Shown: piece by piece, positions 2,164-21,334 of the stretch
Numbering within the stretch: the stretch's first letter is position 1
Layout: every line of letters begins with the position of its first letter
DNA from: Deinococcus sp. LM3
GTDB taxonomy: Bacteria; Deinococcota; Deinococci; Deinococcales; Deinococcaceae
Direction of reading: 5' to 3'
Length of the DNA: 32,000 bases
Assembly (NCBI RefSeq): GCF_002017875.1
Contig: NZ_MUFV01000005.1
Span: 75,437-107,436 of the forward strand
Program-made: the position numbers and the translations under genes
Notes under the pieces: generated by a model
Told to the model about the DNA's origin: nothing
The model's input: the letters and a program-made list of their open reading frames with translations, nothing else
The model's database searches: none

Positions 2164-3786
2164 TCAGTCGTCCGCCACCTGCTGGGGGGTGAAGGTGTAC
2201 TTGACGTGGCTGGTGCTGAACTTCGCGATTCTCATGCTCTCGCCACTGTCGAGGTAGACGGTCGGGCCGTCGATACGCTCAATGCGGACCAGGGTGCCGC
2301 TCGCCTTGTGCCGCCAGATCTTCCCGGCCGCCAGGGCGCCCTCGGCCTCGATGGCCGCGTCGACCGGCGCGTCCGCCTGGACCGGGGCGGGGCGGGCACC
2401 TTCATTCTTCACGTCGTACGCGTGACCCAGGGCCGGCTGCGGGGTCGGGGATCTCTGGCCGGAGAGGGCCTCGGCCGTGAAGGCCTTGCCGAGCAGGCGG
2501 TCCAGGGCGTAGTACCCGGCGTTCGGCATGCCGCCGGGAATGCGGGGGGCGTCGTGCGACGCGGCCTTCGCGGCGCGGTCCAGTTCGGCGTCCGTCAGGC
2601 GGGGCAGCAGATGGCGGTGCGTGCCGGGCAGGGCCAGCTGCTCACGCAGGTGCCCGAGGCGCTTGGCGCTGCTGGCCTGCATCAGGGCCCGCAGGACCTT
2701 CAGGCCCTCCGGATCCCGGGGGGGCCGCGCCTGCAGGTCCGCGAGTGGAATGGGTTCCAGAGCCAGGATCGCCCAGCCCTGGGCACCGGGGTTTTCCACA
2801 GGGGCCGCGGCGGCCGGCGGAACATCTTCAACACCTTCGGCTGTGCCTGATTCCCCGCCTTCCATGCCAGACCCGACCAGTTGATCCAGGAGCAGGTCCT
2901 CGCCCTCTTCGGCGTCCGTGTCTTCAGGCAGGCCTTCAGTGGTTCCGCCGTCAGGCGAAAAGTCATCATCCTGCGCCCTGACTGACTCAATCCAGTCAGG
3001 AATGATGGATGATTTTTTCTCTGTCTGAATCTCTGTCGGCTTCTCGGCAGGCATCTGTGCTGGAGTCTCTGTATATGTAATTGTCAAATCGGTAATTCCG
3101 TTATTACCGTCCCGGTAATCCGGTCTTTGACCGTTTGGTAATTCCGTTATTACCCTTTTGGTAGTTTGGTTATTATCAAAAGAGTAATAACCAGCTGCTC
3201 CGACTCCAGTTTCGCCGGCAGAGTTGGCCAGTTGAGCATCAACCTCATCAGAGGCTCTGGCGGCCTCATCAACCTGCGCTTTGCGACGGTTCCCAGAGGT
3301 GGGCTTGCTGCCCTTCTTGTGGATCAGTTCGCGCCTCGCTTTTGGCCTCACTCGGCCCGCTTGGCGTTCTTGCAGCGGCATCTGAAGTATCTGCTTCCAC
3401 AATTCAGCGAATCGGTCCTCATTAATGCTGAAGTGGACGGTGGGGACCCCCGCATATTTTTTGATTTTGAGCGTCACGATACCAAGGCTCTCCAAAGTCC
3501 GACGAGCACCAACCGCCTCCTTAGCTGTCAAACGGATCTCGGACCACCAAGCCTTGTCAGATTTCGCCAGCCAGAGCCGCCCCTCGTGCGATATCGTCAA
3601 TCGGGTGTCATTGTCACCCCGATTCTTCCGGGGCAGCCGCCAATACATTATCTGGCTGAGCATCAATCCGGCTTTAAGGTCGCCCGCCATGTCGACGTAA
3701 AGCCTCTTAAAATCGATAGCATCATTCGTTGTGCGCTCCCAAGCTACGTAGGCTTGGAAGTCGGCAGTTGGTTCTATCGTGCTCAC
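2164..3786 (-). CDS. Putative plasmid replication-initiator-like protein (N-terminal winged-helix-like region, low-complexity acidic linker, C-terminal small domain)
   Basis: 540-aa ORF with a GTG start at 3786. The N-terminus (AIDFKRLYVDMAGDLKAGLMLSQIMYWRLP...GARRTLESLGIVTLKIKK) resembles wHTH replication or replisome-organizer proteins. It sits next to an AT-richer noncoding region and a par cassette, and carries embedded iteron-like repeats. The functional call is an inference. Confidence 0.45.
   Translation of the reverse strand: MSTIEPTADFQAYVAWERTTNDAIDFKRLYVDMAGDLKAGLMLSQIMYWRLPRKNRGDNDTRLTISHEGRLWLAKSDKAWWSEIRLTAKEAVGARRTLESLGIVTLKIKKYAGVPTVHFSINEDRFAELWKQILQMPLQERQAGRVRPKARRELIHKKGSKPTSGNRRKAQVDEAARASDEVDAQLANSAGETGVGAAGYYSFDNNQTTKRVITELPNGQRPDYRDGNNGITDLTITYTETPAQMPAEKPTEIQTEKKSSIIPDWIESVRAQDDDFSPDGGTTEGLPEDTDAEEGEDLLLDQLVGSGMEGGESGTAEGVEDVPPAAAAPVENPGAQGWAILALEPIPLADLQARPPRDPEGLKVLRALMQASSAKRLGHLREQLALPGTHRHLLPRLTDAELDRAAKAASHDAPRIPGGMPNAGYYALDRLLGKAFTAEALSGQRSPTPQPALGHAYDVKNEGARPAPVQADAPVDAAIEAEGALAAGKIWRHKASGTLVRIERIDGPTVYLDSGESMRIAKFSTSHVKYTFTPQQVADD
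3091..3177. repeat. Iteron-like array: four copies of an 18-bp motif (GGTAATTCCGTTATTACC and degenerate forms) at a 23-bp phase, inside the rep-like CDS
   Basis: Exact 18-mers at 3091..3108 and 3137..3154. Degenerate copies at 3114..3131 and 3160..3177 (14/18). The motif is itself palindromic (ggtaat/attacc arms). Local GC drops visibly. The two exact copies are read in different codon phases (GNNGIT versus VITELP). Confidence 0.6.
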
Positions 3787-4687
3787 AGTTTGTTCCCTGG
3801 TGTGTGGCGGGTGGCAGCATCCACTGGTTCTGTGTTGAGCAGTGCCAGCAGAGTGCGTAGCCGAAGCAGCCGCCAGCTGCTATGTGAGCGGTCATGTATG
3901 TGACGAGCCCCCACCGGACGGGGTTCTACATGGTTATTCGCGGGCTCTGCTTTTTGCGTGAAGGACCACTCCATAAGTTCAGAAAGTGCCGAAAAGCAAA
4001 TCGTCAAAAATCTCGTCTGGGTGCGGAATAACGACATACGTATATGGTTGTGTGCGATTGGGTTTCAAGACAATTCTGAGTCAAGTAGGCTATAAAATTC
4101 CGTCCCTAAATATCGGACAGCTCCTGGCTCACATTGTCTTTTCCTCCGACTCTGCCTGCAAATCCAGGAGACAGGCCGCAATGCGGCTGATCTCACTGAC
4201 GCGGCTCACATGAGATCCCGTCAACCACATGGGCCAGTCTTTTCAATCAGGCCGGTCAATAAAGAATGTGCCGACTATATCCCGAAACCGTAGATACGGA
4301 TTGCCCCTCTGCAGGGGAACGCGAGTAGCACAGACCGGTTAGCCAAGAAAAACACTGACAGATTGTGAGCATAGACTCGCGGCTCAGTGTGAATCTGGGC
4401 CATGAAGTTGACAATCTCCAAATTTGTCAACGAACTCGATGGAAGCAGCAATACTCGTCAGTACCCACGTGACGCCAAACGGACGGGTTTCCCACGCCTC
4501 ACGGGCAGCCGCCAACAAGTTGTTCAGCCGGCTGGCGTCTGATCTGCTTCTGCCGCATTCAACGGCATCTGTGTTCCCGAATATCTCTTCTTAACTTCCT
4601 CCCTTCAAGAAAAGAAAGTGCAGAGATGCCGACAGTCGAGTCAGGTAGGTTCCTGAACTCTGACATGTGGGCAGAGCAGATCAGAAA

Positions 4688-5072
4688 GGGTGCGGTTCAG
4701 GTGTGCTGATGGGTTTCCAAGTCAAGCGATTCCGGAAGAGCAGTCTCCGCGAGTCCTTCCTGCTGACTTTCGAGAAGCCGATCAGTGTCAGTCTGCGGAA
4801 CTTCTCGTAGCCACTGCATCTGTTTGCGATTGGCGTGGTCGTGGCAGCTCATCAGATACGGTCGTGACCGCGTTTGTCGGTACATGTTGCTTCACATGAG
4901 TGCCCCAAACAGCGCAATCCGAAATCGTGTTTTTTAACGAATAGGAACTTTTTTGGGCTCTTTTTCTGCAGATTCCGGTGAAAAATCGCGAAAACGCTGT
5001 TCTGGCGGGCCTTCTAGGGCCACCTGACAGGAAGGATAGGAAAGGGGCTGCGGGATCCGTGGTGTGCAGGAG
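4688..5072. repeat. Tandem direct repeat, unit 1 (385 bp)
   Basis: Starts gggtgcggttcaggtgtgctgatggg. By eye it aligns over its full length to 5073..5450 at roughly 93-95% identity. Confidence 0.85.
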
Positions 5073-5450
5073 GGGTGCGGTTCAGGTGTGCTGATGGGTT
5101 TCCAAGTCAAGCGATTCCGGAAGAGCAGTCTCCGCGGGCCCTTCCCGCTGACTTTCGGGAAGCCGGTCAGTGTCAGTCTGCGGAACTTCTCGTAGCCACT
5201 GCATCTGTTTGCGATTCGCGCGGTCGTGGCAGCTCATCAGATACGATCGTGACCGCGTTTGTCAGTACATGATGCCTCACATGAGTGCCCCAAACAGCGC
5301 AATCCGAAGTCGTGTTTTTCGACAAAGATGCACTTTTTTGGGCTCTTTTTCTGCGAATTCCGGTGAAAAATCGCGAAAACGCTGTTCTGGCGGGTCTTCT
5401 AGGGCGGCCTTACAGGAAGGCCAGGAAGGGGGCGGCGGGAACTGTGGGGG
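5073..5450. repeat. Tandem direct repeat, unit 2
   Basis: Second head-to-tail copy, with a period of exactly 385 bp (4688 to 5073). Similarity decays after about 5450. Confidence 0.85.
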
Positions 5451-5771
5451 GGTCTTGGGTGCTGCTTAAGGAAAAGATTGAGTTGACACTAATATTCCTT
5501 AGTGTGAAATTTATCTCCTATGGACGGTCAGTTCGCTGCTGAGCCGGCACCCATCCACCGGACTGGAAACGCCTCACCTGAGATGGGCTCCCTTCCGTCC
5601 CAGTCAGGTTCGCAGTCCGCTCCACGTCCGAATTGCAGGTCCCACGGGGCCGGCTACAGCGTAAGCAGGATCTCAGCAATCCGTACCCCCATCAGGGGTT
5701 TTCCCGAACGAGTGGCATGAGCACTTCACCGGGTGCCGGTCCTCTCTCACCACATTGCCTCCAGATCTTCC

Positions 5772-5802
5772 ATTCGCTGTTCGCGATTCGCGAACAGCGA
5801 AT
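5772..5802. promoter_or_regulatory. 31-bp perfect palindrome (15+1+15), candidate operator of the TA-like pair
   Basis: attcgctgttcgcga t tcgcgaacagcgaat, ending 11 nt before the ATG at 5814. Confidence 0.55.
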
Positions 5803-5813
5803 ATACTGAGACC

Positions 5814-6323
5814 ATGCTCAAACCCCAGGATCTTCTGATTCTCCTCAAGCTCCTTCAGTCGGGGTATACCTCGCACGCGCAGCTTTCAGGAAGCCTGGGC
5901 ATGAGCTCGTCCGAAGTGCACGCCGGACTCAAACGACTCAAGCAGTCCCGACTCGTCAAGAGCGACGTCTCCCCCATCCGGTCAGCCGTCCGTGAGGTTC
6001 TCCGGTACGGTGTCCCCTATTTCCTCCCCGCCGTGCGGGGCGAACTCACCCGCGGCATGCCGACCGCCTACGCCGCGCCACCACTGAACGCCCATATCGC
6101 TCAGGGCAGCGACCCGCCCCCCATCTGGCCCGACCCTGAAGGCACCGTCCGTGGTCAAGCCCTGGCCCCCCTCTACCGCTCGGTGCCCTTCGCCGCCCGT
6201 CAGGACCCAGCACTCTACGAATGGCTCGCGCTGGTCGATGCCCTGCGGAGCGGAAGCACCCGCGAACGCCAGTTGGCCGGCAAGCTTCTGGACGAGCGCC
6301 TGCAGATCCCGGTCGTGTCATGA
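5814..6323 (+). CDS. Winged-helix DNA-binding protein, AbiEi-like antitoxin candidate
   Basis: In-frame ATG at 5814 within track ORF 5733..6323. The N-terminus MLKPQDLLILLKLLQSGYTSHAQLSGSLGMSSSEVHAGLKRLKQSRLV is a MarR/wHTH-like pattern. Its stop overlaps the downstream start (ATGA at 6320-6323). Confidence 0.55.
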   Translation: MLKPQDLLILLKLLQSGYTSHAQLSGSLGMSSSEVHAGLKRLKQSRLVKSDVSPIRSAVREVLRYGVPYFLPAVRGELTRGMPTAYAAPPLNAHIAQGSDPPPIWPDPEGTVRGQALAPLYRSVPFAARQDPALYEWLALVDALRSGSTRERQLAGKLLDERLQIPVVS

Positions 6324-7027
6324 GCAGCGCAGCGAACATTGAGCGGCTCACCGAGACTGTGCGCCGCCTCGGTCCACTCGCGCAGCAGATGGTCTTCGTC
6401 GGCGGCAGTACCACCGCCCTCTTCATCACCGACGCCGCAGCCGCTGACGTGCGCGAAACCCTGGATATCGACGCCATCGTCAAGATCACCCGGGCCGGGT
6501 ACAACCGGTTGACCGAGTCACTGAACGGGCAGGGCTTCTTCGAGGACACGACTGAAGGCGCACCGATCTGCCGGTTCCGCAACGGCGATCTGATCCTCGA
6601 TGTGATGCCAACCGACGAGCAGGTGCTGGGCTTCAGTAACCCCTGGTACCTCCCCGCGATGGAGCACGCCGAGACCCTGAACCTGGCGGACGGTCTCCAG
6701 GTGCGAACCATCACGGCCCCCTATTTCCTCGCTACCAAACTGGTGGCCTTCGAGGGCCGCGGTGAGGGTGAGTACGGCCTCAGCCATGACATCAGCGACG
6801 TCGTCTCTGTCCTTGATGGGCGGCCTGAAGTGGTCGACGAGGTCAGGCAGAGTGACCGTGAGCTCAAGGCGTTTCTGGCTCAGGCGGCCCGCGAACTGCT
6901 GGTGACCCCCGCATTTACGGACACCATCTCCTATCACCTGCTGCCCGACCCGGCGAGTCAAGCCCGGGAAGGGCTGATCTTGAAGCGTCTGGAACTTCTT
7001 GCAGCAGCCGATCAGCAGGATTCCTGA
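6320..7027 (+). CDS. Nucleotidyltransferase-fold protein, AbiEii-like toxin candidate
   Basis: In-frame ATG at 6320 (MSSAANIERL...). The motif FVGGSTTALFITDAAAADVRETLDIDAIV fits the GG...R.T.DiD pattern of AbiEii/DUF1814-type nucleotidyltransferases. Translationally coupled to the wHTH gene. Confidence 0.55.
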   Translation: MSSAANIERLTETVRRLGPLAQQMVFVGGSTTALFITDAAAADVRETLDIDAIVKITRAGYNRLTESLNGQGFFEDTTEGAPICRFRNGDLILDVMPTDEQVLGFSNPWYLPAMEHAETLNLADGLQVRTITAPYFLATKLVAFEGRGEGEYGLSHDISDVVSVLDGRPEVVDEVRQSDRELKAFLAQAARELLVTPAFTDTISYHLLPDPASQAREGLILKRLELLAAADQQDS

Positions 7028-7375: not shown

Positions 7376-8047
7376 ATGATGGCAGGCATGTCAGCCAGAA
7401 TGTCTCCTGTCGTGATCAGCGCCGTCATGAAGAAGGGCGGTGCCGGGAAAACCTCGACCATCGTGCCCCTGGCCAGTTTCGCTGCGCAGTCCGGGGCCCG
7501 CGTGGCCCTGATCGACATGGACAGCACGCCGAGCGCCCATCAGTGGTTCACGGCGGCTGAACTGGGCAGCGAGACGTTCGCCTGTGACCGCATCACGGCG
7601 GACGAGCTCGATCCGCTGCTGCGGGATATCCGGGAGAGCAGCGCCTTTGATTTCGTGTTCATCGACACGCCCCCCGGGGATAAGCACGGCATCGTGCAGG
7701 CCATGAGTGAGAGTGACCTGGTGCTGATGCCCCTGCACATCGGGTCAGGGGACGTACCCCAGTTGGTCGAGACGTACCACCTGATGCGCCTGCCACTGCG
7801 GGCCAATCCGAAGTTGCATCACCTGATCGTCGTGAACCACGCAGGGACGATGCCAGCGGTGACGCGCGACACGATCAGTGCCATCCAGACTGAACTGCCG
7901 GACGCACAGATCGCGGCCGCCACCATTCCGTACAGCAAGCAGTACGCCCTGGCAAAAGGCAACCGCCCGGACCGCGTGAAGTGGTGGCATTACGACAAGT
8001 TGTGGAAGGAGATTCAGACCCTGCTGCCGCAGGAGGTGCCCGCATGA
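7376..8047 (+). CDS. parA: ParA-family partition ATPase
   Basis: Deviant Walker A motif VMKKGGAGKTST, followed by ALIDMDSTP and FVFIDTPPG. Several candidate ATG starts lie between 7376 and 7403. The stop overlaps the next start (ATGA at 8044-8047). Confidence 0.85.
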   Translation: MMAGMSARMSPVVISAVMKKGGAGKTSTIVPLASFAAQSGARVALIDMDSTPSAHQWFTAAELGSETFACDRITADELDPLLRDIRESSAFDFVFIDTPPGDKHGIVQAMSESDLVLMPLHIGSGDVPQLVETYHLMRLPLRANPKLHHLIVVNHAGTMPAVTRDTISAIQTELPDAQIAAATIPYSKQYALAKGNRPDRVKWWHYDKLWKEIQTLLPQEVPA

Positions 8048-8490: not shown

Positions 8491-8739
8491 CTACCCGTTT
8501 CCGCGTAACAGATCTTGCATGGATAGCTTAAGTGCAGTAGTCAGTCGCAGGAGAGTTGTGAACTGCGGGTCGTACTGCGCACTTTCGATTTTGCTGATGT
8601 GGCTTCGCGAGAGGTTGGCACGGGCGGCAAGTTCTTCCTGACTGTATCCAGAGTTTTGACGTGCCTGCCGGATCTGAGCCGCCATCCACTCCAACGCCTG
8701 TTGTTCATGGGCTTGGTAGGTTCGAGGTGTGCGGGCCAT
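8491..8739 (-). CDS. XRE-family helix-turn-helix regulator (controller-protein-like)
   Basis: 82 aa. YSQEELAARANLSRSHISKIESAQYDPQFTTLLRLTTAL is a classic Cro/C1 HTH_3 pattern. It is divergent from the TGT-like operon. Confidence 0.85.
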   Translation of the reverse strand: MARTPRTYQAHEQQALEWMAAQIRQARQNSGYSQEELAARANLSRSHISKIESAQYDPQFTTLLRLTTALKLSMQDLLRGNG

Positions 8740-8771
8740 TCCACCTACAGTGCAAGAGTTGATCTGACTGT

Positions 8772-8807
8772 GCCACCTATTATAATATGCATATTATAAT
8801 AGGTGGC
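8772..8807. promoter_or_regulatory. Perfect 36-bp AT-rich palindrome carrying TATAAT boxes on both strands: divergent promoter/operator
   Basis: gccacctattataatatg|catattataataggtggc, with all 18 pairs checked base by base. TATAAT at 8781..8786 and 8795..8800, and their mirror images on the minus strand. It is centred in the 119-bp gap between the XRE start (8739) and the GTG at 8859. Confidence 0.7.
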
Positions 8808-8858: not shown

Positions 8859-9827
8859 GTGAAGTATTTTTGCGGCTACACCCCATGGGACTTCCCAATC
8901 GCGCAACTTGACCCCTACGCTCACATGCTCGTCTCGCCGACCACCTATTCGCCAACGTACAGGTACGACTTCCACCCGCCACAGGAGGTCATGCTCGATA
9001 GTGGCGCCTTCCATCACGGTCGGCGTAACACGCATCGTCACCGCCTGCGCACCTTGCATGATCAACTCAAAATTGCCGAACAGTACCCAGGGAGCACGGT
9101 CACTCTTGCCCACAGTGATGTGCTCTTGCGGCCAGAGGTTGATCCACGCCGGAGTATTCATGAAACCCTCGTGAATGCCGAGTGGTTCATGCGGCAGGAC
9201 CTGCCGAGTGGGTACCGACGAATGACTGTCGCTCAAGCACGCACTCCTGACGAGATGTACCTCGTGGTTTCTCAACTGGCTCAATTTGAGCCTGAATTGA
9301 TCGGTATAGGTGGTCTCGCGAATCTCCACCGTACCCACCGCAAACTCCTTCCATTTATGCTCGAAGGAGCGGTGGAGGCCGCCGGCGACCTTCCCCTCCA
9401 CGCACTCGGCGTCACTGCACAGCACATTCTCCAACGGCTACGCATCAACAACATCTACAGTTGCGACTCTGCCACTGCCATCTGGTGCGCCATCTATGGC
9501 AGCGTTGTCTATGCCCGTCCATACCGCCGTTACCGTCTGATCAGCGAGAAATCCAGCAGGCCCGAATCTCCACAGGAAACAGGCTACTACAGCAGTCTGA
9601 CTCGCCCTCTCGCCTGCACATGTCCAGTGTGCCGAACAGTTCCAGAAGAGTTACTAGGCAGTGACTCGCGCGCTAAATACGCCCGTTACATTCACAACTA
9701 CTATCACATCAAGCTTGAGATCGAGGGAGAGGGAGAATGGCAGGCAGTTTACTCATCGGCCGAATACCAGTCCGTTATGACGACCTTTCTCTCCTCCAGG
9801 AGCTCATCGAACAGCACCCAGGCATAA
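8859..9827 (+). CDS. TGT-fold (DpdA-like) transglycosylase, paralog 1
   Basis: GTG start with an AGGAGG SD 5 nt upstream. Motifs MLDSGAFHHG, IGIGGLANL, LHALGVT and YSCDSATA correspond to the two catalytic Asp regions of tRNA-guanine transglycosylases. A Zn-type CTCPVCR...HNYYH motif is also present. The last 91 nt overlap the next gene in another frame. Confidence 0.7.
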   Translation: MKYFCGYTPWDFPIAQLDPYAHMLVSPTTYSPTYRYDFHPPQEVMLDSGAFHHGRRNTHRHRLRTLHDQLKIAEQYPGSTVTLAHSDVLLRPEVDPRRSIHETLVNAEWFMRQDLPSGYRRMTVAQARTPDEMYLVVSQLAQFEPELIGIGGLANLHRTHRKLLPFMLEGAVEAAGDLPLHALGVTAQHILQRLRINNIYSCDSATAIWCAIYGSVVYARPYRRYRLISEKSSRPESPQETGYYSSLTRPLACTCPVCRTVPEELLGSDSRAKYARYIHNYYHIKLEIEGEGEWQAVYSSAEYQSVMTTFLSSRSSSNSTQA

Positions 9828-10525
9828 CGTTTAAAGCACTCAAGGAGACTTTAACGCCACACTGGACGTACTACCTGTCAAGCTCGGCCAGTCTGCTCAA
9901 AGAAACCCTGAGCTTTGGCACAACACTGGGCCTCTTCGCTTCAAGCGCTGAACGGTCATGGGATGACCGCACCTTCAGCACTCCCTATGAATCGAAGCAT
10001 CTTCGTGCCACGATTCTTCATCTCCTGTCCGCGCAATCAGACACCTCCCAGCGGGCCTTTCGTGGAGTTCATGACGAATTGATCGACCAGGGGCATGTCC
10101 ACACGGATATTTCCAGCATCCTCGAATGCATGGAGACTGGGCCCTATGGTCAGGTCTTCCGCTGGAACGATACGAAAGTCAACTTCTGGAGTCAGTTCAT
10201 GCACGACCTGGGTCTGGTCATCCGGCTTCCACCGGAACGGGTGGTCCTGAGTCCGACCAGCTCTCTCCTTCAAGAACTGCTGCCTGCACAGGGCGGCCCC
10301 GTTCGCCCGTTGTTGGAAACGTGGCACCGCGATTATTACGCCGTCTTCACGCGTCTAGGCGAGGTTCACGAAGGACTTGCACGGGCTCTCCTGCGACTGG
10401 AACAACAAGGACACATGACATTCACGTACGCGAGTGACGCCGTCGGCAGTGTGCTGTTATGCGGCCGTCGCATCAGTCACTGGACTCACGCCGCCGCCGG
10501 AGGCACCCATGTGGATTCCCTTTGA
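9737..10525 (+). CDS. Hypothetical protein (262 aa)
   Basis: ATG at 9737 preceded by a purine-rich SD (gagggagagggaga). No motif recognised. Lies in an operon between the TGT-like gene and the P-loop gene. Confidence 0.6.
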   Translation: MAGSLLIGRIPVRYDDLSLLQELIEQHPGITFKALKETLTPHWTYYLSSSASLLKETLSFGTTLGLFASSAERSWDDRTFSTPYESKHLRATILHLLSAQSDTSQRAFRGVHDELIDQGHVHTDISSILECMETGPYGQVFRWNDTKVNFWSQFMHDLGLVIRLPPERVVLSPTSSLLQELLPAQGGPVRPLLETWHRDYYAVFTRLGEVHEGLARALLRLEQQGHMTFTYASDAVGSVLLCGRRISHWTHAAAGGTHVDSL

Positions 10526-13418
10526 TCCTGCCGACGTTGCTCAGGTCTTCACCACCGAATCCCGTCAGAAGCACGAGCGAATCTTCACGCTAACACACAC
10601 AAGCATGAACCGAATTCTCGTCTCGCACAACCGCGTCGGTCTTTCCAATGGCCAGTTTGTCGGTGAGCATGCAGTACTCGATCTGATTCAACAGTCTGCT
10701 CCGCTGGATAGCAATCGCGTCTGGTTCATCGTGGGAGAAACAGGCAGTGGCAAGTCTGAACTCTGCCAGTGGTTGGAGTACCAGTTGCGTGAACGGCACC
10801 TACCCCTGCACATCTCCAGGCGGCAAGCAAATCTCACCGGCATTCTCGATGTGCTGCACACCCATTTACCGTCCGGCCTTCAGGGGCAGACGACTGACCT
10901 GCCGCAGGACGTGTTGACGGATCACCTTCGCCTGCACCTCATGCTACGCGCCCACCGGGAAGGCCGCGGCCTGGGGTACGTCGAGCAGTTGCTGCCCTTT
11001 CTCCCTGACCTCGCCCGGCGGCTCTATCAACCGCTGGCTTCGTTTGAATTGCCACCCCACCTGCCTCCTGCACCCGCAGATGTTCCTTTCACGGCCTGGT
11101 TGTTCAGCGCCGTTCGCGAAGTCTTGGGTCTCCAGTCACTCGAACCCACCCTGCGTGCACTGGCCGAACATACCGCCCAACTCGGGAAACGTCCGGTCCT
11201 TTTGCTGGAAGACATCACCACTCTCGGCTTCTTACGTGACGATCTCCTCGACTACATTTTTGATCTCTCCGCTCCAGGGTTCGACGCGGTCATCGGGCTG
11301 ACCAGCGGTTTTGAAGATACCCACCTTCACCGCGACGGAGACCTTTCAGAGATGGCGTATGTCCGTGACCGTCTCAGTGCCCGGTTCCAGTTATCGCACA
11401 AGAGTGGAGAAACGTTTTTCCTGAACCAACCTCAAGATCTCCATGATCTGGTCCGGCGCTACCTGGGCTGTCTGCCGGCTCAGTCGGGCGGATCTTCGCC
11501 CGCGTTTTCAGGCCTGTACCCGTTTTCACCCACCATGCTCGACCGTCTATACACACATCTGGTCGAAAGTGGTAACCCGCGTCAAACGCCACGGAATCTA
11601 CTCGACGCTGTTATCAAACCTTCCCTGTGTCTGAATGAACCACCCCACGTCACTCTGTTCCGGGCACACCCTTATTTGCGCACGCCCAGCGTTACCTTTT
11701 ACCATCAAGACATTCCACCGGAACTCCAAGGACTGCTGTACTGGCATGGTGAGGTCCGGGACGGAAGTGTTCACGTTCCGGACGATGTGGCGCAGGCATT
11801 CGGTTATGATTCTGTTCCTCCGGTTCCCTGTTTTCCCAATCCCACAGGATCAACGTGGCTCTTCGGAAAGACGGCGGATGATCCAACAGATCTGTGGAAA
11901 GAAGCCATCCGTGAACTGCAAGCCTGGCAATCTGCGGGTGCTCCCTTTCCCAAACGCCAGTATCTCAAGCGCGGGATTGAACGACTTCTCCGGGCCCTGC
12001 TGGATCCGCGCCCTATCCAGCATCCCCGTCTGAATGCGCTCAGCGCAGATCCTTTAGAGTACACGCGCGGAGGCGATCACCTCCCTATTTACTTACCCGA
12101 GAGCGGTGACGTGCGTCCTGAGCATTGGCCGAGCCTGCACTTCCCCCGCACTCTTCCGCCCCAACTGCTTGAAGAATGCCTCACCTATGCGTTCTCCGCC
12201 AATCGCCATGTAGAATGCTTTGCCGATCTGGGACATACGCGACAGGTTCTCGAAGATGTTGTCTCCGATTTCCGGAGTGACGTGCGCGATCAGATCGGAC
12301 GTCTCACCGGACAATCATGGTCGAGGATGGTCTTTGGTCTCTGGTGGCTCTGTCAACATGTCTGCCAGGGCCATCCCCTGCAGATGAACGGCGGGGATGG
12401 CAAACGCGCCCTTTTGCAGTATGATCTCGCCCCAAAAGAACTGCGAACGGCCTGGTCGGATGAGCGTCGCCACCGCGTGTTACACCGCACTCACCAGGAA
12501 CTTCGGGCGAATCGTGATCACTACCGGGGCTTATTTGTGAGCCTCTTCCATCACAGAGACGACCTGATGGACCCCGTGCTCTATGAACAGGAGTGCCGAC
12601 AGTTCGATCCCAGTCTGTTCATGGATACCCTGGCCACGCTTTCACTCTCACGCCTCTCGGCGGCGCCCTACCGGCAACGGGGCAGTAAGCTCTCGTTGAC
12701 GCAACTCCTCCAACCCGCCGTGGAATACGCCGCAGCCCTCAAGGCATACGTCCTTCAAGACGAAGACCGTCTCCAGTGGACGGCCGTGGAACGCAGCCTT
12801 GAACACGCCATTCAACAGGCAGATGAATTGGACCTAGCCTGCAGACGTATTGAGCGTCTGGCTCATCAGGCCGGATGGACCATCACTGCCCCGCCGACCA
12901 GTCACACGTGGCGGTCCGGCGAGTGGGCAGGTGTCCTGCGTCAGTCCCAGCAGGCCAGTCGCGACTTCAAGAACCATCCTCCGATTGTGCAGATCACGGT
13001 GGCGCGCACGTGGCGGGAACGCCTGGAACAAATAGAACCGATCCAGTGGATGAACGCTGTTAAGGTGTTCCGAGACAGCGCTGAACGCATTCACCAGGAG
13101 AGGCACCCCGTTGAACAACTGCCCACACGACAGACGCATCATTCGAGTGACGTTCACCTGAATGATCTGGAAGATCTCGCCAGTACGCTGGCGGCGGCCG
13201 CGGACGCCGCCGACACCTTGCCACAGCATGTTGCCGAGCAGACGGCCCGTTCGATCCGTCGCCTGCAGGCGACGCAGACTCAGAGCATTGAAGCCGTCCT
13301 GGGCCGTCATGGCATTCACGCACCCGTGCAGATGGCGCGGCAGTCACGGGAGGCCAGTCTGGTTCTTCTGAGTGACCTGCTGGAATGCATGGTGGACCTC
13401 ATGGACTGCCCACCGTGA
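10509..13418 (+). CDS. Large P-loop NTPase (about 970 aa) of unknown family
   Basis: ATG at 10509 with a GGAGG SD 5 nt upstream (the track ORF starts earlier, at 10434). Walker A is WFIVGETGSGKSELC and Walker B-like is PVLLLEDITTLG. It has a long helical C-terminal region. It overlaps the upstream gene by 17 nt. Confidence 0.7.
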   Translation: MWIPFDPADVAQVFTTESRQKHERIFTLTHTSMNRILVSHNRVGLSNGQFVGEHAVLDLIQQSAPLDSNRVWFIVGETGSGKSELCQWLEYQLRERHLPLHISRRQANLTGILDVLHTHLPSGLQGQTTDLPQDVLTDHLRLHLMLRAHREGRGLGYVEQLLPFLPDLARRLYQPLASFELPPHLPPAPADVPFTAWLFSAVREVLGLQSLEPTLRALAEHTAQLGKRPVLLLEDITTLGFLRDDLLDYIFDLSAPGFDAVIGLTSGFEDTHLHRDGDLSEMAYVRDRLSARFQLSHKSGETFFLNQPQDLHDLVRRYLGCLPAQSGGSSPAFSGLYPFSPTMLDRLYTHLVESGNPRQTPRNLLDAVIKPSLCLNEPPHVTLFRAHPYLRTPSVTFYHQDIPPELQGLLYWHGEVRDGSVHVPDDVAQAFGYDSVPPVPCFPNPTGSTWLFGKTADDPTDLWKEAIRELQAWQSAGAPFPKRQYLKRGIERLLRALLDPRPIQHPRLNALSADPLEYTRGGDHLPIYLPESGDVRPEHWPSLHFPRTLPPQLLEECLTYAFSANRHVECFADLGHTRQVLEDVVSDFRSDVRDQIGRLTGQSWSRMVFGLWWLCQHVCQGHPLQMNGGDGKRALLQYDLAPKELRTAWSDERRHRVLHRTHQELRANRDHYRGLFVSLFHHRDDLMDPVLYEQECRQFDPSLFMDTLATLSLSRLSAAPYRQRGSKLSLTQLLQPAVEYAAALKAYVLQDEDRLQWTAVERSLEHAIQQADELDLACRRIERLAHQAGWTITAPPTSHTWRSGEWAGVLRQSQQASRDFKNHPPIVQITVARTWRERLEQIEPIQWMNAVKVFRDSAERIHQERHPVEQLPTRQTHHSSDVHLNDLEDLASTLAAAADAADTLPQHVAEQTARSIRRLQATQTQSIEAVLGRHGIHAPVQMARQSREASLVLLSDLLECMVDLMDCPP

Positions 13419-13459
13419 GCAACACCAGGGATGGCTCAGTACGTCGAAGCTAACATTGC

Positions 13460-13486
13460 GAGGTTCCGGCAAAGCGCCGGAACCTC
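13460..13486. terminator. Hairpin between convergent operons (candidate terminator)
   Basis: gaggttccggc-aaagc-gccggaacctc, a perfect 11-bp stem. No clear U-tract on either side. A second, weaker GC hairpin with a gtttat tail follows at about 13514-13535. Confidence 0.35.
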
Positions 13487-13559
13487 TCCATTCCCGCTCC
13501 AACGTACTTTTTCTGCTGCGCGCTCCGCGCGGTTTATCTACAAGATAAACGCAGTGTAC

Positions 13560-15545
13560 TTAATTCAGGAGGCGTTCCATGGGCCGCTCCAGGTTGTCCC
13601 GTCGTTCCCGGGCAGCCTCATAGCGGTCTCGTTTAACGAGGAGGCTTTCATCGCCGGCAAGGATACGGGCCTGCACGTCCTGGAGTGCCCGGAGGTACAT
13701 GTTGATGTTATGAACGGCGCGGCCCATGTTCGCTTCGTTGCCACCGTTGTAGGGACGGCCACTCGGGTCGCGTAATGTTCCACCCTGTGCCCGGGTGTCC
13801 CACCCTTCGGCGCGCATGGCAGAGCACGCAGGACAGTGGCAGGGCGGTAACTCATCGCTTCCAGGAACGTTCTCAACAATCCGGTACTTTTTGAGGAGGT
13901 TGGGGTCTTCCGGGACGTACTGAAGGAAGGATCCGGCCGTGAAGGCAGACATATACATGCTGGAACCGTCAAAGGAGTCAACACCCAGATGTGTGAGCGT
14001 GGCAGCCCATTTGATACTGGAAACCCCCAGGACGTGAATATACAGATCCGGCACCTGGGCCCGGTACTGTAAGGCGTCTTCAACGCACCGGTAAACAAAG
14101 TACGGATCACGACTTGATTTCAGGGCGAGACTGCCCAGGGCGATGTGCCGGTACCCGAGATCCAGGTAATGCTCCATCATTTCGTGCCGTTGCTCGAAGG
14201 ACCCGTGGGTGACGGCCATGAGACGGTGCGCACCGGCGAGGGGCTTCATGGCTCTTGCGAACTGATAGGAGATTTCAATTTTTTCGCGCGCAACCTGCGG
14301 ACTGTCGAGACCGTCAAGGATCATCATATCCGGGGAGACGATAATGTCACGTCCTTCCCGGGCCCCTGCATCCTCAAACAGTTTCATGGTGCCCTCTGGC
14401 GTCAGGGGTCCGTTGCGTTTTTTCAGGATGGGGTATGGCTCTGCCTTGTAACTCCAGGCGCCGCAATCGTAGATATTGCCCTCATCAGTTTGTGGCAAGG
14501 GATCACTGTTAGGGTTGTGATACGCCAGAGAGGTCAAGTACCCCCTGGGATCCGTTTCAATAAAGTTCCAGATGCGTTCCATCTTGGGGGTTGGCAACGG
14601 CGCCCCTGCGTGATCCTGTGTCAGTTTGAGCTTGTCACGGTTGTTAATCACCACTGTGAATCGTGCCCGCGGAGGCACCGCGAGTTCATGCTGGGCTTTC
14701 GGGTAAAACGCTTCACTGCTCAAGTTCAGAGGGTTGAAGCCCAGTCCGGTGCGGTGAATGCTGGGACCTGTGGTGACCGGCATGGGAGGCACTGAAGCTT
14801 CTACCTCAGCCTCTGACATGAGCGTTGGTGCCGTGCGGGCCGCCTGCCAGGTTTCCAGATAGGTGATGGCGCTCTGAGGATCGGCGTGCCAATCGTGCAG
14901 CACTTCTGGATGTTCTGCGACGGCCCGCGCGAGTTGATGAAACAAGAAGCCTTTCAGGCCAACCATACCGTATCCGAAGCGACGTGCATCCTTATTGACC
15001 AGAGGGAGAACAGCCTGCTTGGCGGCATGCTCGGGAAGAATGGCGGCACTCCCGCCACTGGCCAGAAAAATGAAGCTTTGATCTGGACGACTCTGCAGTG
15101 GGAGAAGGGCCGACTTCAGATAATTCTCGCCGAGCAGGAAAATGACAATATCATAAGACTTTATTCTTGCATTCAGGGCCTCGTGGATGCCCAGCTGCTT
15201 ACTCCAGTCTAAGACTTCCCGGCTTTTTAATTCGTTGAAAGACGTTTCGTAGGGGGCAATAAATTTATACTGATCGATTAAGCCATAACCGGCTGAGATG
15301 ATTTCCAGCCGACTGACAACACCTTTGATCTTCGAGAGAATATCAAAAGCTCGGGAGACCTGTTGGTGCTGCGCACCCGTGTATAAGCGCTTGGCTGAAG
15401 TTCGGTACTCCGCCAACTCTTGCTCACGAGCCCGAAGGTGATCTCCTCCCTTGCGGAAATCCTCTATCACAAGTTGATTTGGCGGTTTGTATAGCTTTGC
15501 GCCCGTACAAGAACTGATGACTAACAAGCTTGGGTACTTGGGCAT
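13560..15545 (-). CDS. Fusion protein: N-terminal YaaA/DUF328- or DUF6884-like domain plus C-terminal TGT-fold (DpdA-like) domain, paralog 2
   Basis: 661 aa. The N-terminal pattern is VISSCTGAKL...AKRLYTGAQH...IISAGYGLIDQYKFIAPYETSF. The C-terminal motifs are IYDCGAWS, IALGSLALK, IHVLGVSS, GVDSFDGSSMY and CHCPACS...HNINMY. The ATG at 15545 lies 2 nt after the queC stop (15548). Confidence 0.7.
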   Translation of the reverse strand: MPKYPSLLVISSCTGAKLYKPPNQLVIEDFRKGGDHLRAREQELAEYRTSAKRLYTGAQHQQVSRAFDILSKIKGVVSRLEIISAGYGLIDQYKFIAPYETSFNELKSREVLDWSKQLGIHEALNARIKSYDIVIFLLGENYLKSALLPLQSRPDQSFIFLASGGSAAILPEHAAKQAVLPLVNKDARRFGYGMVGLKGFLFHQLARAVAEHPEVLHDWHADPQSAITYLETWQAARTAPTLMSEAEVEASVPPMPVTTGPSIHRTGLGFNPLNLSSEAFYPKAQHELAVPPRARFTVVINNRDKLKLTQDHAGAPLPTPKMERIWNFIETDPRGYLTSLAYHNPNSDPLPQTDEGNIYDCGAWSYKAEPYPILKKRNGPLTPEGTMKLFEDAGAREGRDIIVSPDMMILDGLDSPQVAREKIEISYQFARAMKPLAGAHRLMAVTHGSFEQRHEMMEHYLDLGYRHIALGSLALKSSRDPYFVYRCVEDALQYRAQVPDLYIHVLGVSSIKWAATLTHLGVDSFDGSSMYMSAFTAGSFLQYVPEDPNLLKKYRIVENVPGSDELPPCHCPACSAMRAEGWDTRAQGGTLRDPSGRPYNGGNEANMGRAVHNINMYLRALQDVQARILAGDESLLVKRDRYEAARERRDNLERPMERLLN

Positions 15546-15547
15546 AC

Positions 15548-16252
15548 TTACTCTTGTATACCGTCCTGCGCCTGGGCGTAGCGGGTGGCGAGGTCCGGGC
15601 GGCCCGCCTCGATCAGCGCCTTATCGCGGATGCGGCATGAATCGCACACCCCGCACGGCTCCTCGCCCCCCTGGTAGCAACTCCAGGTCACGTCGATCGG
15701 CACGCCCACCGCCAGCGCCTCGCGCACGATGTCCGCCTTCGTCATCTCCGCCAGCGGCGCTGTCAGTACCGCCCCGCGCCCCTCCAGGCCCGCCTTCGTC
15801 GCCAGGTCCGCCAGCGTCTGGTACGCCGAGAGATACTCCGGCCGGCAGTCCGGGTACCCGCTGTAATCCACCGCGTTGATCCCCAGGAACACCCGCTCCG
15901 CGTCGATCGCCTCGGCCAGACTCAGACCCACGGCAATAAAGACCGTGTTGCGCCCCGGCACGTACGTCGGCGGAATCACGCCGTCCTCCGTCCCGTCCGT
16001 CGGCACGGCCATCGACTCGTCCGTCAGGGCACTCCCCCCGAACGACCCGATATTGATGTCGATCACCCGGTGCACGGCTCCGAAGTGCGCCGCGACCGTC
16101 GCTGCCCGCTCCAGTTCCACCGTGTGCCGCTGCCCGTACCGGAACGACAACGCCGTACACGCATACCCGTCCCGCGTCGCCATGCCCAGCACCGTGCTCG
16201 AATCCAGCCCGCCCGACAGCAGCACCACTGCCCTCTTATTCTGATTTGTCAT
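15548..16252 (-). CDS. queC: 7-cyano-7-deazaguanine (preQ0) synthase QueC
   Basis: [14 protein letters not shown]-loop motif, YGQRH, and a C-terminal Zn cluster [18 protein letters not shown]. Confidence 0.95.
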
Positions 16253-16377: not shown

Positions 16378-17070
16378 TCAGTACCCAAGTTCCGCGTTCC
16401 CACCGAGGGGGATGAGGCGCTTGTCACTGTGCGCGTCGAGGTCGTCGGCGCGGTACAGCTTGTGCATCTGGTACCCGGCCCGCAGGCGCGGGTTCTCCTT
16501 CACCGCCTGCGTGATGCCGTTCAGCACAGTCAGATCCCGCTCGCGGGCCCGGCTCCACTCCGGGTGCAGCCAGATCACCGCCCCGTCCGGCAGGCCGGTC
16601 AGGGTGTCCAGGCCCGCCTGAATATCACCGGGTTCGTGGACGATGATCTTCACCTCGTCCGCGAGTACCACGACTTCCGGCAGCGGGGGCTGCCCGAACG
16701 GTTTGGGCGACAGCGTCACCCAGTCCAGTTCACCCCGCAGCGGTGCGATCCCGCTCGTCTCGATGTGCACCCGGCGGCCCAGCGCGTGCAGGGCGTCCGT
16801 CAGGGGCGCGAGGTCGAACAGGATCGGCTCGCCCCCCGTGACCACCACCACCGCGCCCTCTGGACTCTCGGCCCGCACCACATCGGCCAGTTCATCGGCA
16901 CTCATGAGGGTCACGCCGTCCGGGCGGTAGTCGCGGTGCCACGTGCCGGCACTGTCGCACCAGGGGCAGGCCTGCGGGCAGCCGTACAGGCGGATGAAGT
17001 ACGCCGCGCGGCCCAGGTGAACCCCCTCGCCCTGCCAGGTGTAGAACCGCTCGTACACCGGGTACTTCAT
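16378..17070 (-). CDS. queE: 7-carboxy-7-deazaguanine synthase QueE (radical SAM)
   Basis: N-terminus YERFYTWQGEGVHLGRAAYFIRLYGCPQACPWCDS (CX14CX2C-type cluster motif). Typical QueE length (230 aa). Confidence 0.9.
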   Translation of the reverse strand: MKYPVYERFYTWQGEGVHLGRAAYFIRLYGCPQACPWCDSAGTWHRDYRPDGVTLMSADELADVVRAESPEGAVVVVTGGEPILFDLAPLTDALHALGRRVHIETSGIAPLRGELDWVTLSPKPFGQPPLPEVVVLADEVKIIVHEPGDIQAGLDTLTGLPDGAVIWLHPEWSRARERDLTVLNGITQAVKENPRLRAGYQMHKLYRADDLDAHSDKRLIPLGGNAELGY

Positions 17071-17211: not shown

Positions 17212-17622
17212 TCACTCCCAGTACTCGCAGGAGCTGTCGGGTGTCTCCCAGAGCGTCACGTGCAGGCGCAGGTCTGCGCCGTCGTCCCCGTCGGGCAGGT
17301 CGGCGCGCACGCGCTTCATGGTGTGGCGGTGAATGTACGCGGCGACGACCTCGGCGGTCGTGTCGTCCCCGAGTTCCGGGATGTCGTTCAGGTATGCGTG
17401 GTCCAGGCCGCCGGCGTCCACGTCCTTCTTCGCCCATTTGAGGGTCTTGAAGTCCGCGACCATGATGGCCCGCTTGACGTGCGCACTCGGGCGGAGTTTC
17501 TCACTGGTGAGTTCCAGCCGGACGCGGTACGTGTGCCCGTGCAGTCTCCCGCACGGCCCGTCGTAGCCGGTGATCACATGTGCCGAATCGAACGTGAACT
17601 CCGAACTCAGTTTCCAAGGCAT
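17212..17622 (-). CDS. queD: 6-carboxy-5,6,7,8-tetrahydropterin synthase QueD
   Basis: FTFDSAHVITGYDGPCGRLHGHTYRVRLEL, a PTPS-family His/Cys motif. 136 aa. Its start shares 1 nt with the yhhQ stop (TGATG). Confidence 0.9.
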   Translation of the reverse strand: MPWKLSSEFTFDSAHVITGYDGPCGRLHGHTYRVRLELTSEKLRPSAHVKRAIMVADFKTLKWAKKDVDAGGLDHAYLNDIPELGDDTTAEVVAAYIHRHTMKRVRADLPDGDDGADLRLHVTLWETPDSSCEYWE

Positions 17623-18257
17623 CAGCGGACTCCTGCGGGTGCGGTGGTGAGGGCGGGCTCCTGCGGCTCACTGACCTGGGTTCGCACCCAGCGAACCAGG
17701 GGAATAAGCAGAAGGCTGATCAGCATCTTCAGGATGATCTGCCCGAGCATCAGGTTCAGCAGGGGCGCGCCGGTCCCGGCAAAGGCCAGCGTGATGAACA
17801 CGATGGTATCCAGGGTGGTGCTCACGGCGTTCGACGCGATGACCTGCACGGTGACCCCACGGTGACGCAGACGCTCGAAGATCAGGGCGTCGAGGGCCGT
17901 GCTGATCAGGTACGCGGCCAGGCTCGCCAGGACCACGCGGACCGTGGAACCGAAGACCACCTGATAGGCGTCGTCCTGGAAGAATCCGGGTTTCGGAAGG
18001 GCATTGACGAGTAGACCGTAGGCGGCGAGCAGCGCGTTGGCGGCGAAACCGCCCCACAGGACCGCCTTGGCGGCCGTCCAGCCCCCCGCGGTGTGGATGG
18101 CGTCCCTAAGGGTGAAGGTCAGGGAGTACAGGAAGATCGCGCCGGGAAAGACCAGGGAGCCGAGCTGCACGAGGCGACCGGCGGTGACGTTACTGACGAG
18201 TTCCGCGCCGATGTAGACGGAGATCAGGATGGTCAGCAGGGTGGTGCGTTGAGTCAT
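17622..18257 (-). CDS. yhhQ: Queuosine-precursor transporter (YhhQ/DUF165, VUT family)
   Basis: 211-aa polytopic membrane protein. The pattern FPGAIFLYSLTFTLRDAIH is typical of YhhQ-type preQ0/preQ1 importers. Confidence 0.8.
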   Translation of the reverse strand: MTQRTTLLTILISVYIGAELVSNVTAGRLVQLGSLVFPGAIFLYSLTFTLRDAIHTAGGWTAAKAVLWGGFAANALLAAYGLLVNALPKPGFFQDDAYQVVFGSTVRVVLASLAAYLISTALDALIFERLRHRGVTVQVIASNAVSTTLDTIVFITLAFAGTGAPLLNLMLGQIILKMLISLLLIPLVRWVRTQVSEPQEPALTTAPAGVR

Positions 18258-20743: not shown

Positions 20744-21334
20744 TTAGACAGGTGGATGTAAAAGTCGCCGGGCCCGATCCATGGCTTGAACCAAAGGGTC
20801 TTGGTCACCGTGGCGCCGAAGCCACGGACCGGTTGGTCCGTGCGCGCCTTTCAATGCCTGAAGCCACAGAGTGCCGAGATAGTGCACAAGGACATGATCC
20901 AGATCCTCTGAAGGCGGTGCGGCGCTTATGAGCGAAGCAGATAGGCCTGAAGACTGATCCACCGGAGGCATAAATTCTTGCTCTGCGTCGTGCAGTAGAG
21001 TAAGACCTTGGTCTACAGCAGTTCCACGTTTCTCTGGAACTTCACCATGAGGCGGCAAGTGCACTTCCTGGACCCCCTGGGCGCTACGGTCTTCATACAG
21101 TCGGCTCAGCAGTTTGAGCGCGTCACGCACATCTACAGGTTTGGTACTGCACTGCACCACGGTCCAGGGCCCCAGTTGCCGTTCCTCAACTCCCGCCGCC
21201 AAGACGAAGGTCAGGCCCAGAGTGACTTCAGGGTAGGCCACAGGCAACGTCCCCACGTCGGCGTGTGTGAAGTTGTACTCCGCTTCAGGCAGGGAGGCCA
21301 TCTGCAACCGGCCAGCAAGTTCAAGAGCGTTCAT
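20744..21334 (-). CDS. Hypothetical protein (196 aa), last gene of the defence-like operon
   Basis: Its ATG overlaps the stop of the upstream helicase gene (ATGA at 21331-21334). No motif recognised. Its stop abuts the IS-remnant repeat. Confidence 0.55.
   Translation of the reverse strand: MNALELAGRLQMASLPEAEYNFTHADVGTLPVAYPEVTLGLTFVLAAGVEERQLGPWTVVQCSTKPVDVRDALKLLSRLYEDRSAQGVQEVHLPPHGEVPEKRGTAVDQGLTLLHDAEQEFMPPVDQSSGLSASLISAAPPSEDLDHVLVHYLGTLWLQALKGAHGPTGPWLRRHGDQDPLVQAMDRARRLLHPPV

Follow-up and report, generated by a model that had tools for sequence, protein, structure and literature searches.

Among described systems that handle 7-deazaguanines in DNA, the closest to the locus studied here is the Dpd system (dpdA-K, of the Salmonella Montevideo type), and this system, its components DpdG and DpdH, and DNA transglycosylases of the TGT family are already known. 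In it, the transglycosylase DpdA is inactive in vitro without the ATPase DpdB (PMC10164549), and DpdB accompanies DpdA in 92% of genomes (PMC5699537). Three further descriptions are relevant: in BREX, BrxC, BrxA, and the modifying enzyme are all needed for self-modification (PMC12839542); BRIGADE was reported only from halophilic archaea, in a study that also likened DpdH plus DpdI to BrxC (10.1101/2025.09.15.676423); and in BRC (BREX-related capture) with a TGT and a STAND NTPase, the NTPase was proposed to replace DpdB for preQ0 insertion (PMC12839542). Here, we analyzed a 32,000-nt stretch of DNA from Deinococcus sp. LM3 (contig NZ_MUFV01000005.1, positions 75,437 to 107,436; hereafter the window), in which a first reading of the sequence (the original prediction) had noted an operon of a TGT-like gene, a 262-aa protein, and a very large NTPase as a candidate functional replacement for DpdB. 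We find that these three genes, hereafter TGT-like, G2 (DpdG-like), and H2 (DpdH-like), are a conserved, co-regulated module of a Dpd-like system in which no DpdB was detected.

Compared with the canonical Dpd system, the module-bearing islands share preQ0 genes, TGT-family enzymes, a DpdC domain, and DpdE/F/G/H/I/J/K-type genes, and two of the module proteins have homologues among the Dpd components: the homology of G2 to DpdG spans the whole protein, and that of H2 to DpdH the ~450 residues at the N-terminus. They differ in that TGT-like, G2, and H2 all score below the NCBIfam cutoffs, that the latter two represent a diverged second set beside canonical DpdG/H, and that DpdB was not detected in the module loci. 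With the BREX core (BrxC, BrxA, and PglX/BrxX) the module has in common a large AAA+ protein, ending in helices and predicted on weak fold matches to be of ORC/Cdc6 type, together with a small protein of multiple winged helices and a putative DNA-modifying enzyme, but it has no Pfam BrxC_BrxD match, PglZ, or BrxB, and the modifier is a methyltransferase in BREX and a base-exchanging transglycosylase here; neither PglX nor PglZ was found in the window or in related loci. Beyond the bacterial clade, the closest relatives of H2 and G2 are those of BRIGADE, which share 25-31% identity and are sister to them in a rough tree; like the module loci, BRIGADE has no detected DpdB and carries 7-deazaguanine genes and several TGT paralogues. 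Its G-H pair, however, is followed on one strand by a DpdI-like gene, one or more YprA helicase genes, and a PLD nuclease gene (Natronococcus locus), and has no adjacent TGT-like orthologue. BRC differs by its HerA/FtsK, PglZ, DUF6079, DUF4007, and GNAT components, none of which is present in the module.

The three genes lie on the forward strand at 8859-9827 (TGT-like, GTG start, 322 aa), 9737-10525 (G2, ATG start, 262 aa), and 10509-13418 (H2, ATG start, 969 aa, within a longest open reading frame (ORF) that begins at 10434). The neighboring genes overlap by exactly 91 nt (TGT-like/G2) and 17 nt (G2/H2), and Shine-Dalgarno motifs (AGGAGG, GAGGGAG, and GGAGG in gene order) stand 5-7 nt before the starts, so that the tight operon with strong ribosome-binding sites first described for this stretch is borne out by the sequence. 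All three proteins are currently annotated as hypothetical. NCBI records for Deinococcus sp. LM3 hold products identical to the 322-aa TGT-like and 969-aa H2 proteins, a D. knuensis record holds a 262-aa protein with 95% identity to G2, and each of the three has homologues in other phyla at identities down to 25-40%. Judged by these sequence comparisons, all three are genuine genes and not chance ORFs. The overlapping start of G2 is supported as well, since the 91-nt overlap encodes its N-terminus (MAGSLLIGRIPVRY...), a conserved segment that the predicted model shows as structured. Other phyla have a conserved gene of 98-135 aa right after H2, overlapping it by 4-8 nt. In the window, a 114-aa ORF at 13431-13775 (+) starts 13 nt past the H2 stop, but it is probably spurious, because it overlaps the 3′ end of a convergent 661-aa gene and had no match to the hidden Markov model (HMM) of the small post-H2 protein family. 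Two other ideas about the small gene were rejected: it shows no relationship to DpdI, and the Deinococcus H2 does not contain it as a fusion.

The TGT-like protein looks like a minimal guanine/7-deazaguanine transglycosylase with an intact active site. Its single-sequence matches were weak (Pfam TGT, E 0.079; PADLOC DpdA, E 1.9e-6), and a PDB search with the single sequence returned no match. A profile built from 21 orthologues, when searched against the PDB, placed the Salmonella DpdA DNA-guanine transglycosylase (7UI4) first with an E-value of 2.8e-13, followed by the archaeosine TGT, arcTGT (1IQ8, E 2.2e-9). Across the same 21 orthologues, D47 (in DSGAF), D87, D203-S204, and the zinc site C253-x-C255-x-x-C258...H279 are invariant, Q126 is nearly so, and the GG[LMV] motif is retained. 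D47, D87, and D203 correspond to D95, D130, and D256 of DpdA, all three of which are invariant across the TGT and DpdA families, with D95 and D256 experimentally essential (PMC10164549); by the roles assigned there, they are the general acid/base, the base-binding Asp, and the nucleophile, respectively. The apparent activity of the enzyme is suggested by this conservation of catalytic Asp residues, Gln, and zinc site.

The TGT-like protein is nevertheless distinct from canonical DpdA. The active site and zinc site are common to both, whereas the large DpdA-specific insertion after the nucleophile (Ins8) is missing, so that the zinc motif follows the nucleophile by about 50 residues in TGT-like (D203) and by about 110 in DpdA (7UI4). 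Against the NCBIfam DpdA model (NF041059; Pfam PF23859) it scored 24.1 bits, below the 200-bit cutoff, versus 465 and 422 bits for the neighboring DpdA genes of Chloroflexia and Sericytochromatia, respectively. In rough trees, TGT-like proteins formed a separate clade, apart from canonical DpdA and from the other two TGT domains encoded in the window (a 297-aa TGT and the TGT domain of a 661-aa fusion). Viral contigs held only distant TGT relatives and no H2 relative. As a separate observation, the window has three TGT paralogues of three clades within 11 kb (8859-9827, 13560-15545, and 18780-19673), and none passes the NCBIfam DpdA cutoff.

Neither partner of the TGT-like protein had been assignable to a known family by eye, and profile comparisons have now changed this: G2 is a distant DpdG paralogue and H2 a distant DpdH paralogue. 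Profiles were needed to show the homology: when G2 and H2 were compared one to one by BLASTP with their canonical counterparts in D. taeanensis, hardly any similarity appeared outside the Walker A region. Specifically, G2 matched NCBIfam DpdG (NF041064) at E 3.2e-9 and 36.6 bits, below the 80-bit cutoff, and that model matched five of 61 G2-family representatives at E ≤ 1e-3; precomputed Pfam PF28110, which is named DpdG, matched G2 homologues of 95-56% identity. A 19-orthologue G2 profile aligned by hhalign with a canonical DpdG profile (Enterobacter, Nostoc, Agrobacterium, D. taeanensis, and Calidithermus) at 96.7% probability, E 3.7e-10, over 228 columns. The AlphaFold model of G2 (pLDDT 82.9, pTM 0.81) consists of winged-helix units in a row, its top PDB folds, all weak, were the tandem winged-helix proteins STK19, Rpc5 tWHD, and RPC62, and BrxA (7ZGE) was not among its top 50 Foldseek matches. 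From its predicted tandem winged helices, G2 presumably binds DNA. Its position also departs from that of canonical dpdG, as it follows the TGT-like gene and does not lie between dpdF and dpdH.

In H2, the Walker A (GETGSGKS, aa 76-83, nt 10734-10757) and Walker B (LLLEDIT, aa 231-237, nt 11199-11219) motifs that had first marked it as an NTPase hold up well, with G76, G79, G81, K82, S83, E234, and D235 invariant in an alignment of 84 homologues. H2 matched NCBIfam DpdH (NF041065) at E 6e-11 and 41.5 bits, below the 450-bit cutoff and over only the first ~120 residues, and PADLOC DpdH at E 1.5e-10; hhalign paired it with canonical DpdH at 99.6% probability and E 2e-23 across 452 columns, covering the N-terminal halves only. 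By the same method, residues 470-969 gave a probability below 1% against the DpdH C-terminal half, DpdI, or both joined. In its C-terminal half, H2 thus shows no detectable relationship to canonical DpdH, and it is not followed by DpdI, the next gene in the window being convergent. The AlphaFold model, built on the 84-homologue alignment (mean pLDDT 89.6), suggests an AAA+ N-terminal half, a distinct alpha/beta middle, and a tail of nearly unbroken helices from about residue 730 to 965 (~240 residues), in agreement with the long helical tail of the original prediction.

In the search for an AAA-type fold that had been proposed for the NTPase, ORC4, Orc1, and Cdc6 topped the Foldseek list against the PDB with probabilities up to 1.0, but with E-values of only 4.5e-3 and low TM scores, and a PDB profile search with the H2 family returned only coiled-coil noise (e.g., apolipoprotein A-I). 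Sequence profiles and the predicted model together describe H2 best as a remote paralogue of DpdH whose N-terminal half is an AAA+ domain, putatively ORC/Cdc6-like, and whose C-terminal half has no detectable kinship to that of DpdH. Such a fold would fit the published view of DpdH plus DpdI as BrxC-like, BrxC being itself an AAA+ protein of the ORC/Cdc6 clade. Pfam BrxC_BrxD did not match H2. A conjugation or partition ATPase, which would have spoken for an unrelated function, was rejected as an identity for H2, as were ABC and STAND proteins; Pfam matched the P-loop only, below threshold.

The H2 family is rare, with 89 proteins recovered from a search of 5.8 billion sequences, and the profile of G2 matched 77 cluster representatives out of 1.84 billion. 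Hosts of H2 include Deinococcus, Calidithermus, a metagenome-assembled genome (MAG) of Sericytochromatia, and many Chloroflexia, with more distant members in haloarchaea that correspond to the published BRIGADE systems. We mapped the fetched loci with HMMs and scored adjacency only where the flank sufficed. G2 was immediately upstream of H2 in 28 of 28 scorable loci, and a TGT-like gene adjoined G2-H2 in 20 of the 23 bacterial loci with enough flank (Deinococcota, Chloroflexota, and Sericytochromatia), so the three genes do occur together in other genomes, across three bacterial phyla. Two arrangements were seen. The TGT-like gene was upstream, co-directional, and overlapping in seven loci (Deinococcota, Sericytochromatia, and one metagenome contig), with a TGT-like/G2 overlap of 11-91 nt in Deinococcota and Sericytochromatia, and was just downstream on the opposite strand, facing a helix-turn-helix (HTH)-dpdA pair, in 13 loci of the Chloroflexia type. 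In a reverse search, H2 or the trailing small gene lay next to the TGT-like gene in nine of 12 metagenomic loci, and the three exceptional loci border transposases or an integrase.

All 20 loci with an adjacent TGT-like gene had dpdA, dpdC, a DUF6884-TGT fusion, or que genes within a few kb, and none of the loci examined had the module by itself. In Sericytochromatia (locus L002), TGT-like, G2, H2, a 98-aa gene, DpdC (PADLOC, E 4e-51), and DpdA are encoded on one strand, with 4-nt overlaps running from H2 through the small gene into dpdC. The Chloroflexia-type order is dpdI-J-K-D, G2-H2-small gene, TGT-like (reverse strand), HTH, and dpdA, and in Deinococcus the module borders a DpdC-TGT fusion and queC/E/D/yhhQ. 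In Chloroflexi bacterium OHK40 (L003, 1-8424 and 16046-20354), the module and dpdA stand beside DruC/DruD-like genes and a YjiV_N-type helicase in a setting that is Druantia-like and not Dpd-like, and after dpdA comes a fragment of an endonuclease III-like glycosylase. Both this locus and L038 (17302-17973) also have a gene for a nucleoside 2-deoxyribosyltransferase close to the TGT pair.

No DpdB (DGQHR/ParB-like) was found in the window or in ~40 related loci, nor is one annotated on the complete 78.7-kb plasmid of D. taeanensis, where the module is accompanied by dpdE, dpdF, dpdH, DpdG-/DpdI-/DpdJ-/DpdK-like genes, and the DpdC-TGT fusion. Neither DpdB queries nor a small DpdB HMM matched anything in any H2 locus, and no DndB/ParB Pfam families were recorded in the six loci with precomputed Pfam. 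As for position, the Chloroflexia module is flanked by dpdD and a bona fide dpdA, and in Sericytochromatia the module is co-directional with dpdC-dpdA, where dpdB normally sits. Because dpdD is followed by dpdB and dpdA in the canonical Enterobacter cluster, G2-H2-TGT-like can be said to hold the dpdB position in Chloroflexia. As an ATPase in the slot beside dpdA/dpdC, H2 resembles DpdB and could supply an ATP-dependent step; it differs in kind, DpdB being a ParB-like protein of ~375 aa and H2 a predicted ORC/Cdc6-like AAA+ protein of ~970 aa with a winged-helix partner. The resemblance is thus limited to position and proposed role, and any replacement would be by analogy, not by homology. A recent large survey required both dpdA and dpdB, and surveys of this kind miss module-bearing islands entirely.

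Upstream of the operon, a divergent gene (8491-8739, -) encodes an 82-aa Xre/Cro-type HTH regulator (Pfam HTH_3, E 2e-15), and the repeat search identified a perfect 36-bp palindrome (GCCACCTATTATAATATG/CATATTATAATAGGTGGC; 18-nt arms, 100% complementary, no spacer) at 8772-8807. Promoter-like sites at 8759-8786 (+) and 8822-8793 (-) each match 10 of 12 positions, and the palindrome covers the -10 (TATAAT) boxes of both of these divergent sites. Its core (CTATTATAATATG/CATATTATAATAG) is also conserved ahead of the TGT-like gene in three further Deinococcus loci, the proteins of which are only 57-74% identical. A small HTH gene occurs in the equivalent position in D. taeanensis (L030) and Sericytochromatia, and in Chloroflexia one sits between the TGT-like gene and dpdA. 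The palindrome is probably an operator, and the arrangement looks like that of an autoregulated controller, similar to the controller-protein circuits of restriction-modification systems.

How might the module work? We tentatively favor, while stopping just short of calling it probable, that it is the translationally coupled part of a 7-deazaguanine island and forms an ATP-driven, DNA-engaging complex for a transglycosylase, taking the DpdB role through an unrelated fold. Mechanistically, the divergent Xre-type repressor would act on the palindromic operator and control the module; TGT-like, G2, and H2 would assemble into one complex; H2 and G2 would load onto and engage double-stranded DNA; and ATP would be used to present target guanines to the TGT-like transglycosylase. 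In lineages with canonical DpdA, H2 and G2 may serve that enzyme as well. We infer that host DNA would thereby receive preQ0 made by the neighboring queCDE genes and that the module would supply the ATP-dependent step that the ParB-like DpdB gives to DpdA in Salmonella. Such a writer role is favored because the operon is coupled to dpdC/dpdA, the dpdB slot is taken, and no other conserved non-helicase ATPase lies beside canonical DpdA. BREX offers a parallel, as the modifying enzyme there requires BrxC, BrxA, and BrxB (PMC12839542), and a further precedent is the NTPase proposed to stand in for DpdB in the unrelated BRC systems.

Several points weigh against this writer role. Phage DpdA enzymes work without DpdB, so a helper ATPase is not universally required. 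The absence of DpdB covers ~10 kb around each locus and one complete plasmid, with a DpdB HMM made from two sequences, and the fold matches are weak (Foldseek E 2.5e-3 or higher). Since Chloroflexia and Sericytochromatia have canonical DpdA, a second active transglycosylase is not obviously needed to write the mark. Moreover, the nearest H2 relatives, the haloarchaeal BRIGADE DpdH proteins, are co-operonic with DpdI-like, YprA-helicase, and PLD genes and not with a TGT, and for this placement in helicase/nuclease operons the sensor or effector function that the original prediction had offered as an alternative has to be weighed. Finally, DpdG and DpdH belong to the dpdD-K restriction set, and dpdA/B/C suffice for modification in Salmonella (PMC10164549). 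The proposed replacement of DpdB gained from the synteny and from the failure to find DpdB, and lost ground in that the partners are relatives of DpdG and DpdH and H2 is not ParB-like.

The strongest rival, which we consider somewhat unlikely, is that the module is the reader arm of restriction, in which the transglycosylase would flip and probe target guanines and an unmodified G in incoming DNA would lead the AAA+/winged-helix pair to form an ATP-dependent signal or platform that recruits the DpdE/F/J helicases and the DpdK nuclease; the writers would then be other TGT paralogues (the DpdC-TGT fusion, the 297-aa TGT, or canonical DpdA). Besides the restriction-set membership of DpdG and DpdH and the YprA helicase and PLD nuclease operons of the nearest H2 relatives, this explanation can draw on the Chloroflexia loci, where G2-H2 directly follows dpdI-J-K-D on the same strand, on the fact that no module-bearing lineage lacks a further TGT that could do the writing, and on BREX, whose modifying enzyme is also thought to be a site sensor (PMC12839542). 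It fits less well with the operon coupling to dpdC-dpdA in Sericytochromatia and with the separate canonical DpdG-DpdH(-DpdI) set that already serves the restriction operon in Deinococcus and Calidithermus, and a TGT acting as a sensor would be without precedent.

Writing and reading might also be combined. We regard it as unlikely, but as the most interesting outcome, that the trio would be a BREX-style recognition machine, working by base exchange in place of methylation, in which an ORC/Cdc6-like AAA+ assembly with a winged-helix adaptor scans double-stranded DNA and offers target guanines to a transglycosylase; one and the same complex would write the host mark and license the DpdE/F/J/K helicase-nuclease arm at unmarked sites of incoming DNA. 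If true, this would answer both how Dpd-type systems separate self from non-self and how a transglycosylase acts on duplex DNA without DpdB.

Less credible, and in our view improbable, is a self-contained accessory defense or counter-defense unit that has lodged in Dpd islands, e.g., a (trans)glycosylase that attacks guanine-modified phage DNA with its own ATPase. Defense islands are mosaics, glycosylases against 7-deazaguanine-modified phage DNA exist (10.1101/2025.10.29.685425), and the OHK40 genome has the module and dpdA beside DruC/DruD-like genes and not a canonical dpd restriction operon. Yet such a unit would hardly be expected to show the invariable company of other 7-deazaguanine genes (20 of 20 loci with an adjacent TGT-like gene) or never to occur by itself among the loci examined, and the zinc site and full TGT catalytic set suit base exchange more than simple excision. 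Lastly, modification of tRNA or another RNA by a TGT-like enzyme functionally unrelated to the ATPase pair is very improbable, for although this small protein is similar to the catalytic core of arcTGT (1IQ8, the second-best PDB match), it has no PUA or other tRNA-binding C-terminal domain, its closest solved relative is the DNA enzyme DpdA, its gene overlaps that of G2 in Deinococcota and Sericytochromatia, its linkage is kept across phyla, and its neighborhood throughout is a DNA-defense island.

The remainder of the island in the window lies on the reverse strand. Convergent with the operon is the 661-aa fusion (13560-15545) of an N-terminal DUF6884 (DpdC-type) domain and a C-terminal TGT domain (Pfam DUF6884, E 9.5e-10, and TGT, E 2.9e-8; PADLOC matches to DpdC and DpdA), which would join base insertion and nitrile hydrolysis in a single chain. 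The fusion gene directly follows H2 in D. rhizophilus and a D. hopiensis MAG, lies elsewhere in the island of D. taeanensis, and has look-alikes near the haloarchaeal G-H loci. Next come the preQ0 supply genes, namely queC (15548-16252; Pfam QueC, E 1e-70), queE (16378-17070; Pfam Radical_SAM), queD (17212-17622; Pfam PTPS, E 6.6e-29), and a YhhQ/Vut_1 precursor transporter (17622-18257; Pfam Vut_1, E 1.6e-33), and then the third TGT paralogue, of 297 aa (18780-19673; Pfam TGT, E 9.4e-24; NCBIfam tgt_general, 79 bits).

Restriction-type genes follow, also on the reverse strand: a UvrD/GajB-like helicase (21331-23394), a DpdK-like PLD protein (23405-24205; PADLOC/NCBIfam, E 1e-12), DpdJ (24202-29538; E 6e-134 and 5e-111 by PADLOC/NCBIfam), DpdI (29576-30280; PADLOC/NCBIfam, E 3e-14), and the C-terminal half of a canonical DpdH (30277-32000, the window end; E 2.4e-46, profile positions 458-1011). 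Because this canonical dpdH-I-J-K set is present elsewhere in the window, G2/H2 represents a second, diverged pair; both canonical DpdG/DpdH and G2/H2 pairs are likewise present in D. taeanensis and Calidithermus. No DpdB, canonical DpdA, or DpdD was found within the window. The helicase is extended at its N-terminus by ~200 aa, and its homologue in Calidithermus weakly matches a ParE-like Pfam family, reminiscent of the RelE-GajB fusion in ARMADA type II; a 196-aa ORF without a family match (20744-21334, -) overlaps the helicase start by 4 nt. Exact products of dpdI and of the helicase gene have no database record. The DpdJ homologue shows a weak match to the MrfA Zn-binding domain (MZB/DUF1998, E 0.0021), which suggests that the island is an early-branching Dpd relative.

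On the other side of the module, two overlapping genes at 5733-7027 (+) match the PADLOC candidate defense pair PDC-M21A/B (E 2.5e-42 and 9e-64), the first with a winged HTH and the second with weak AbiEii similarity, and resemble a separate toxin-antitoxin-like defense module beside the island. A ParA/VirC1-type partition ATPase is encoded at 7376-8047 (+), and the homologous island of D. taeanensis is on the complete 78.7-kb plasmid, which also codes for ParA and RepA, so that the window may derive from a plasmid or megaplasmid. At ~3000-5200 the G+C content is 0.51-0.53, versus 0.57-0.68 elsewhere, with no ORF of at least 80 aa between 4037 and 5170, and the large ORFs at 1-4 kb overlap across both strands and have no family matches. 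Neither an Rfam nor a tRNA scan gave a match in the window.

In the searchable literature, we did not find a description of the diverged G2/H2 pair, of its fixed coupling to a distinct TGT clade, or of the occupation of the dpdB slot in three bacterial phyla. The finding touches two open questions: how a tRNA-type transglycosylase, so far known to need DpdB, is brought to act on double-stranded DNA, and which functions DpdG and DpdH have and by what means the mark is read. By tying a transglycosylase to DpdG/DpdH paralogues without detected DpdB, the module offers a compact, genetically separable three-protein unit for both. Overall, by analogy with BrxC in BREX, our data suggest that DpdG/DpdH pairs may be general DNA-engaging scaffolds that can partner with nucleases and helicases in some systems and with a modifying enzyme in others.

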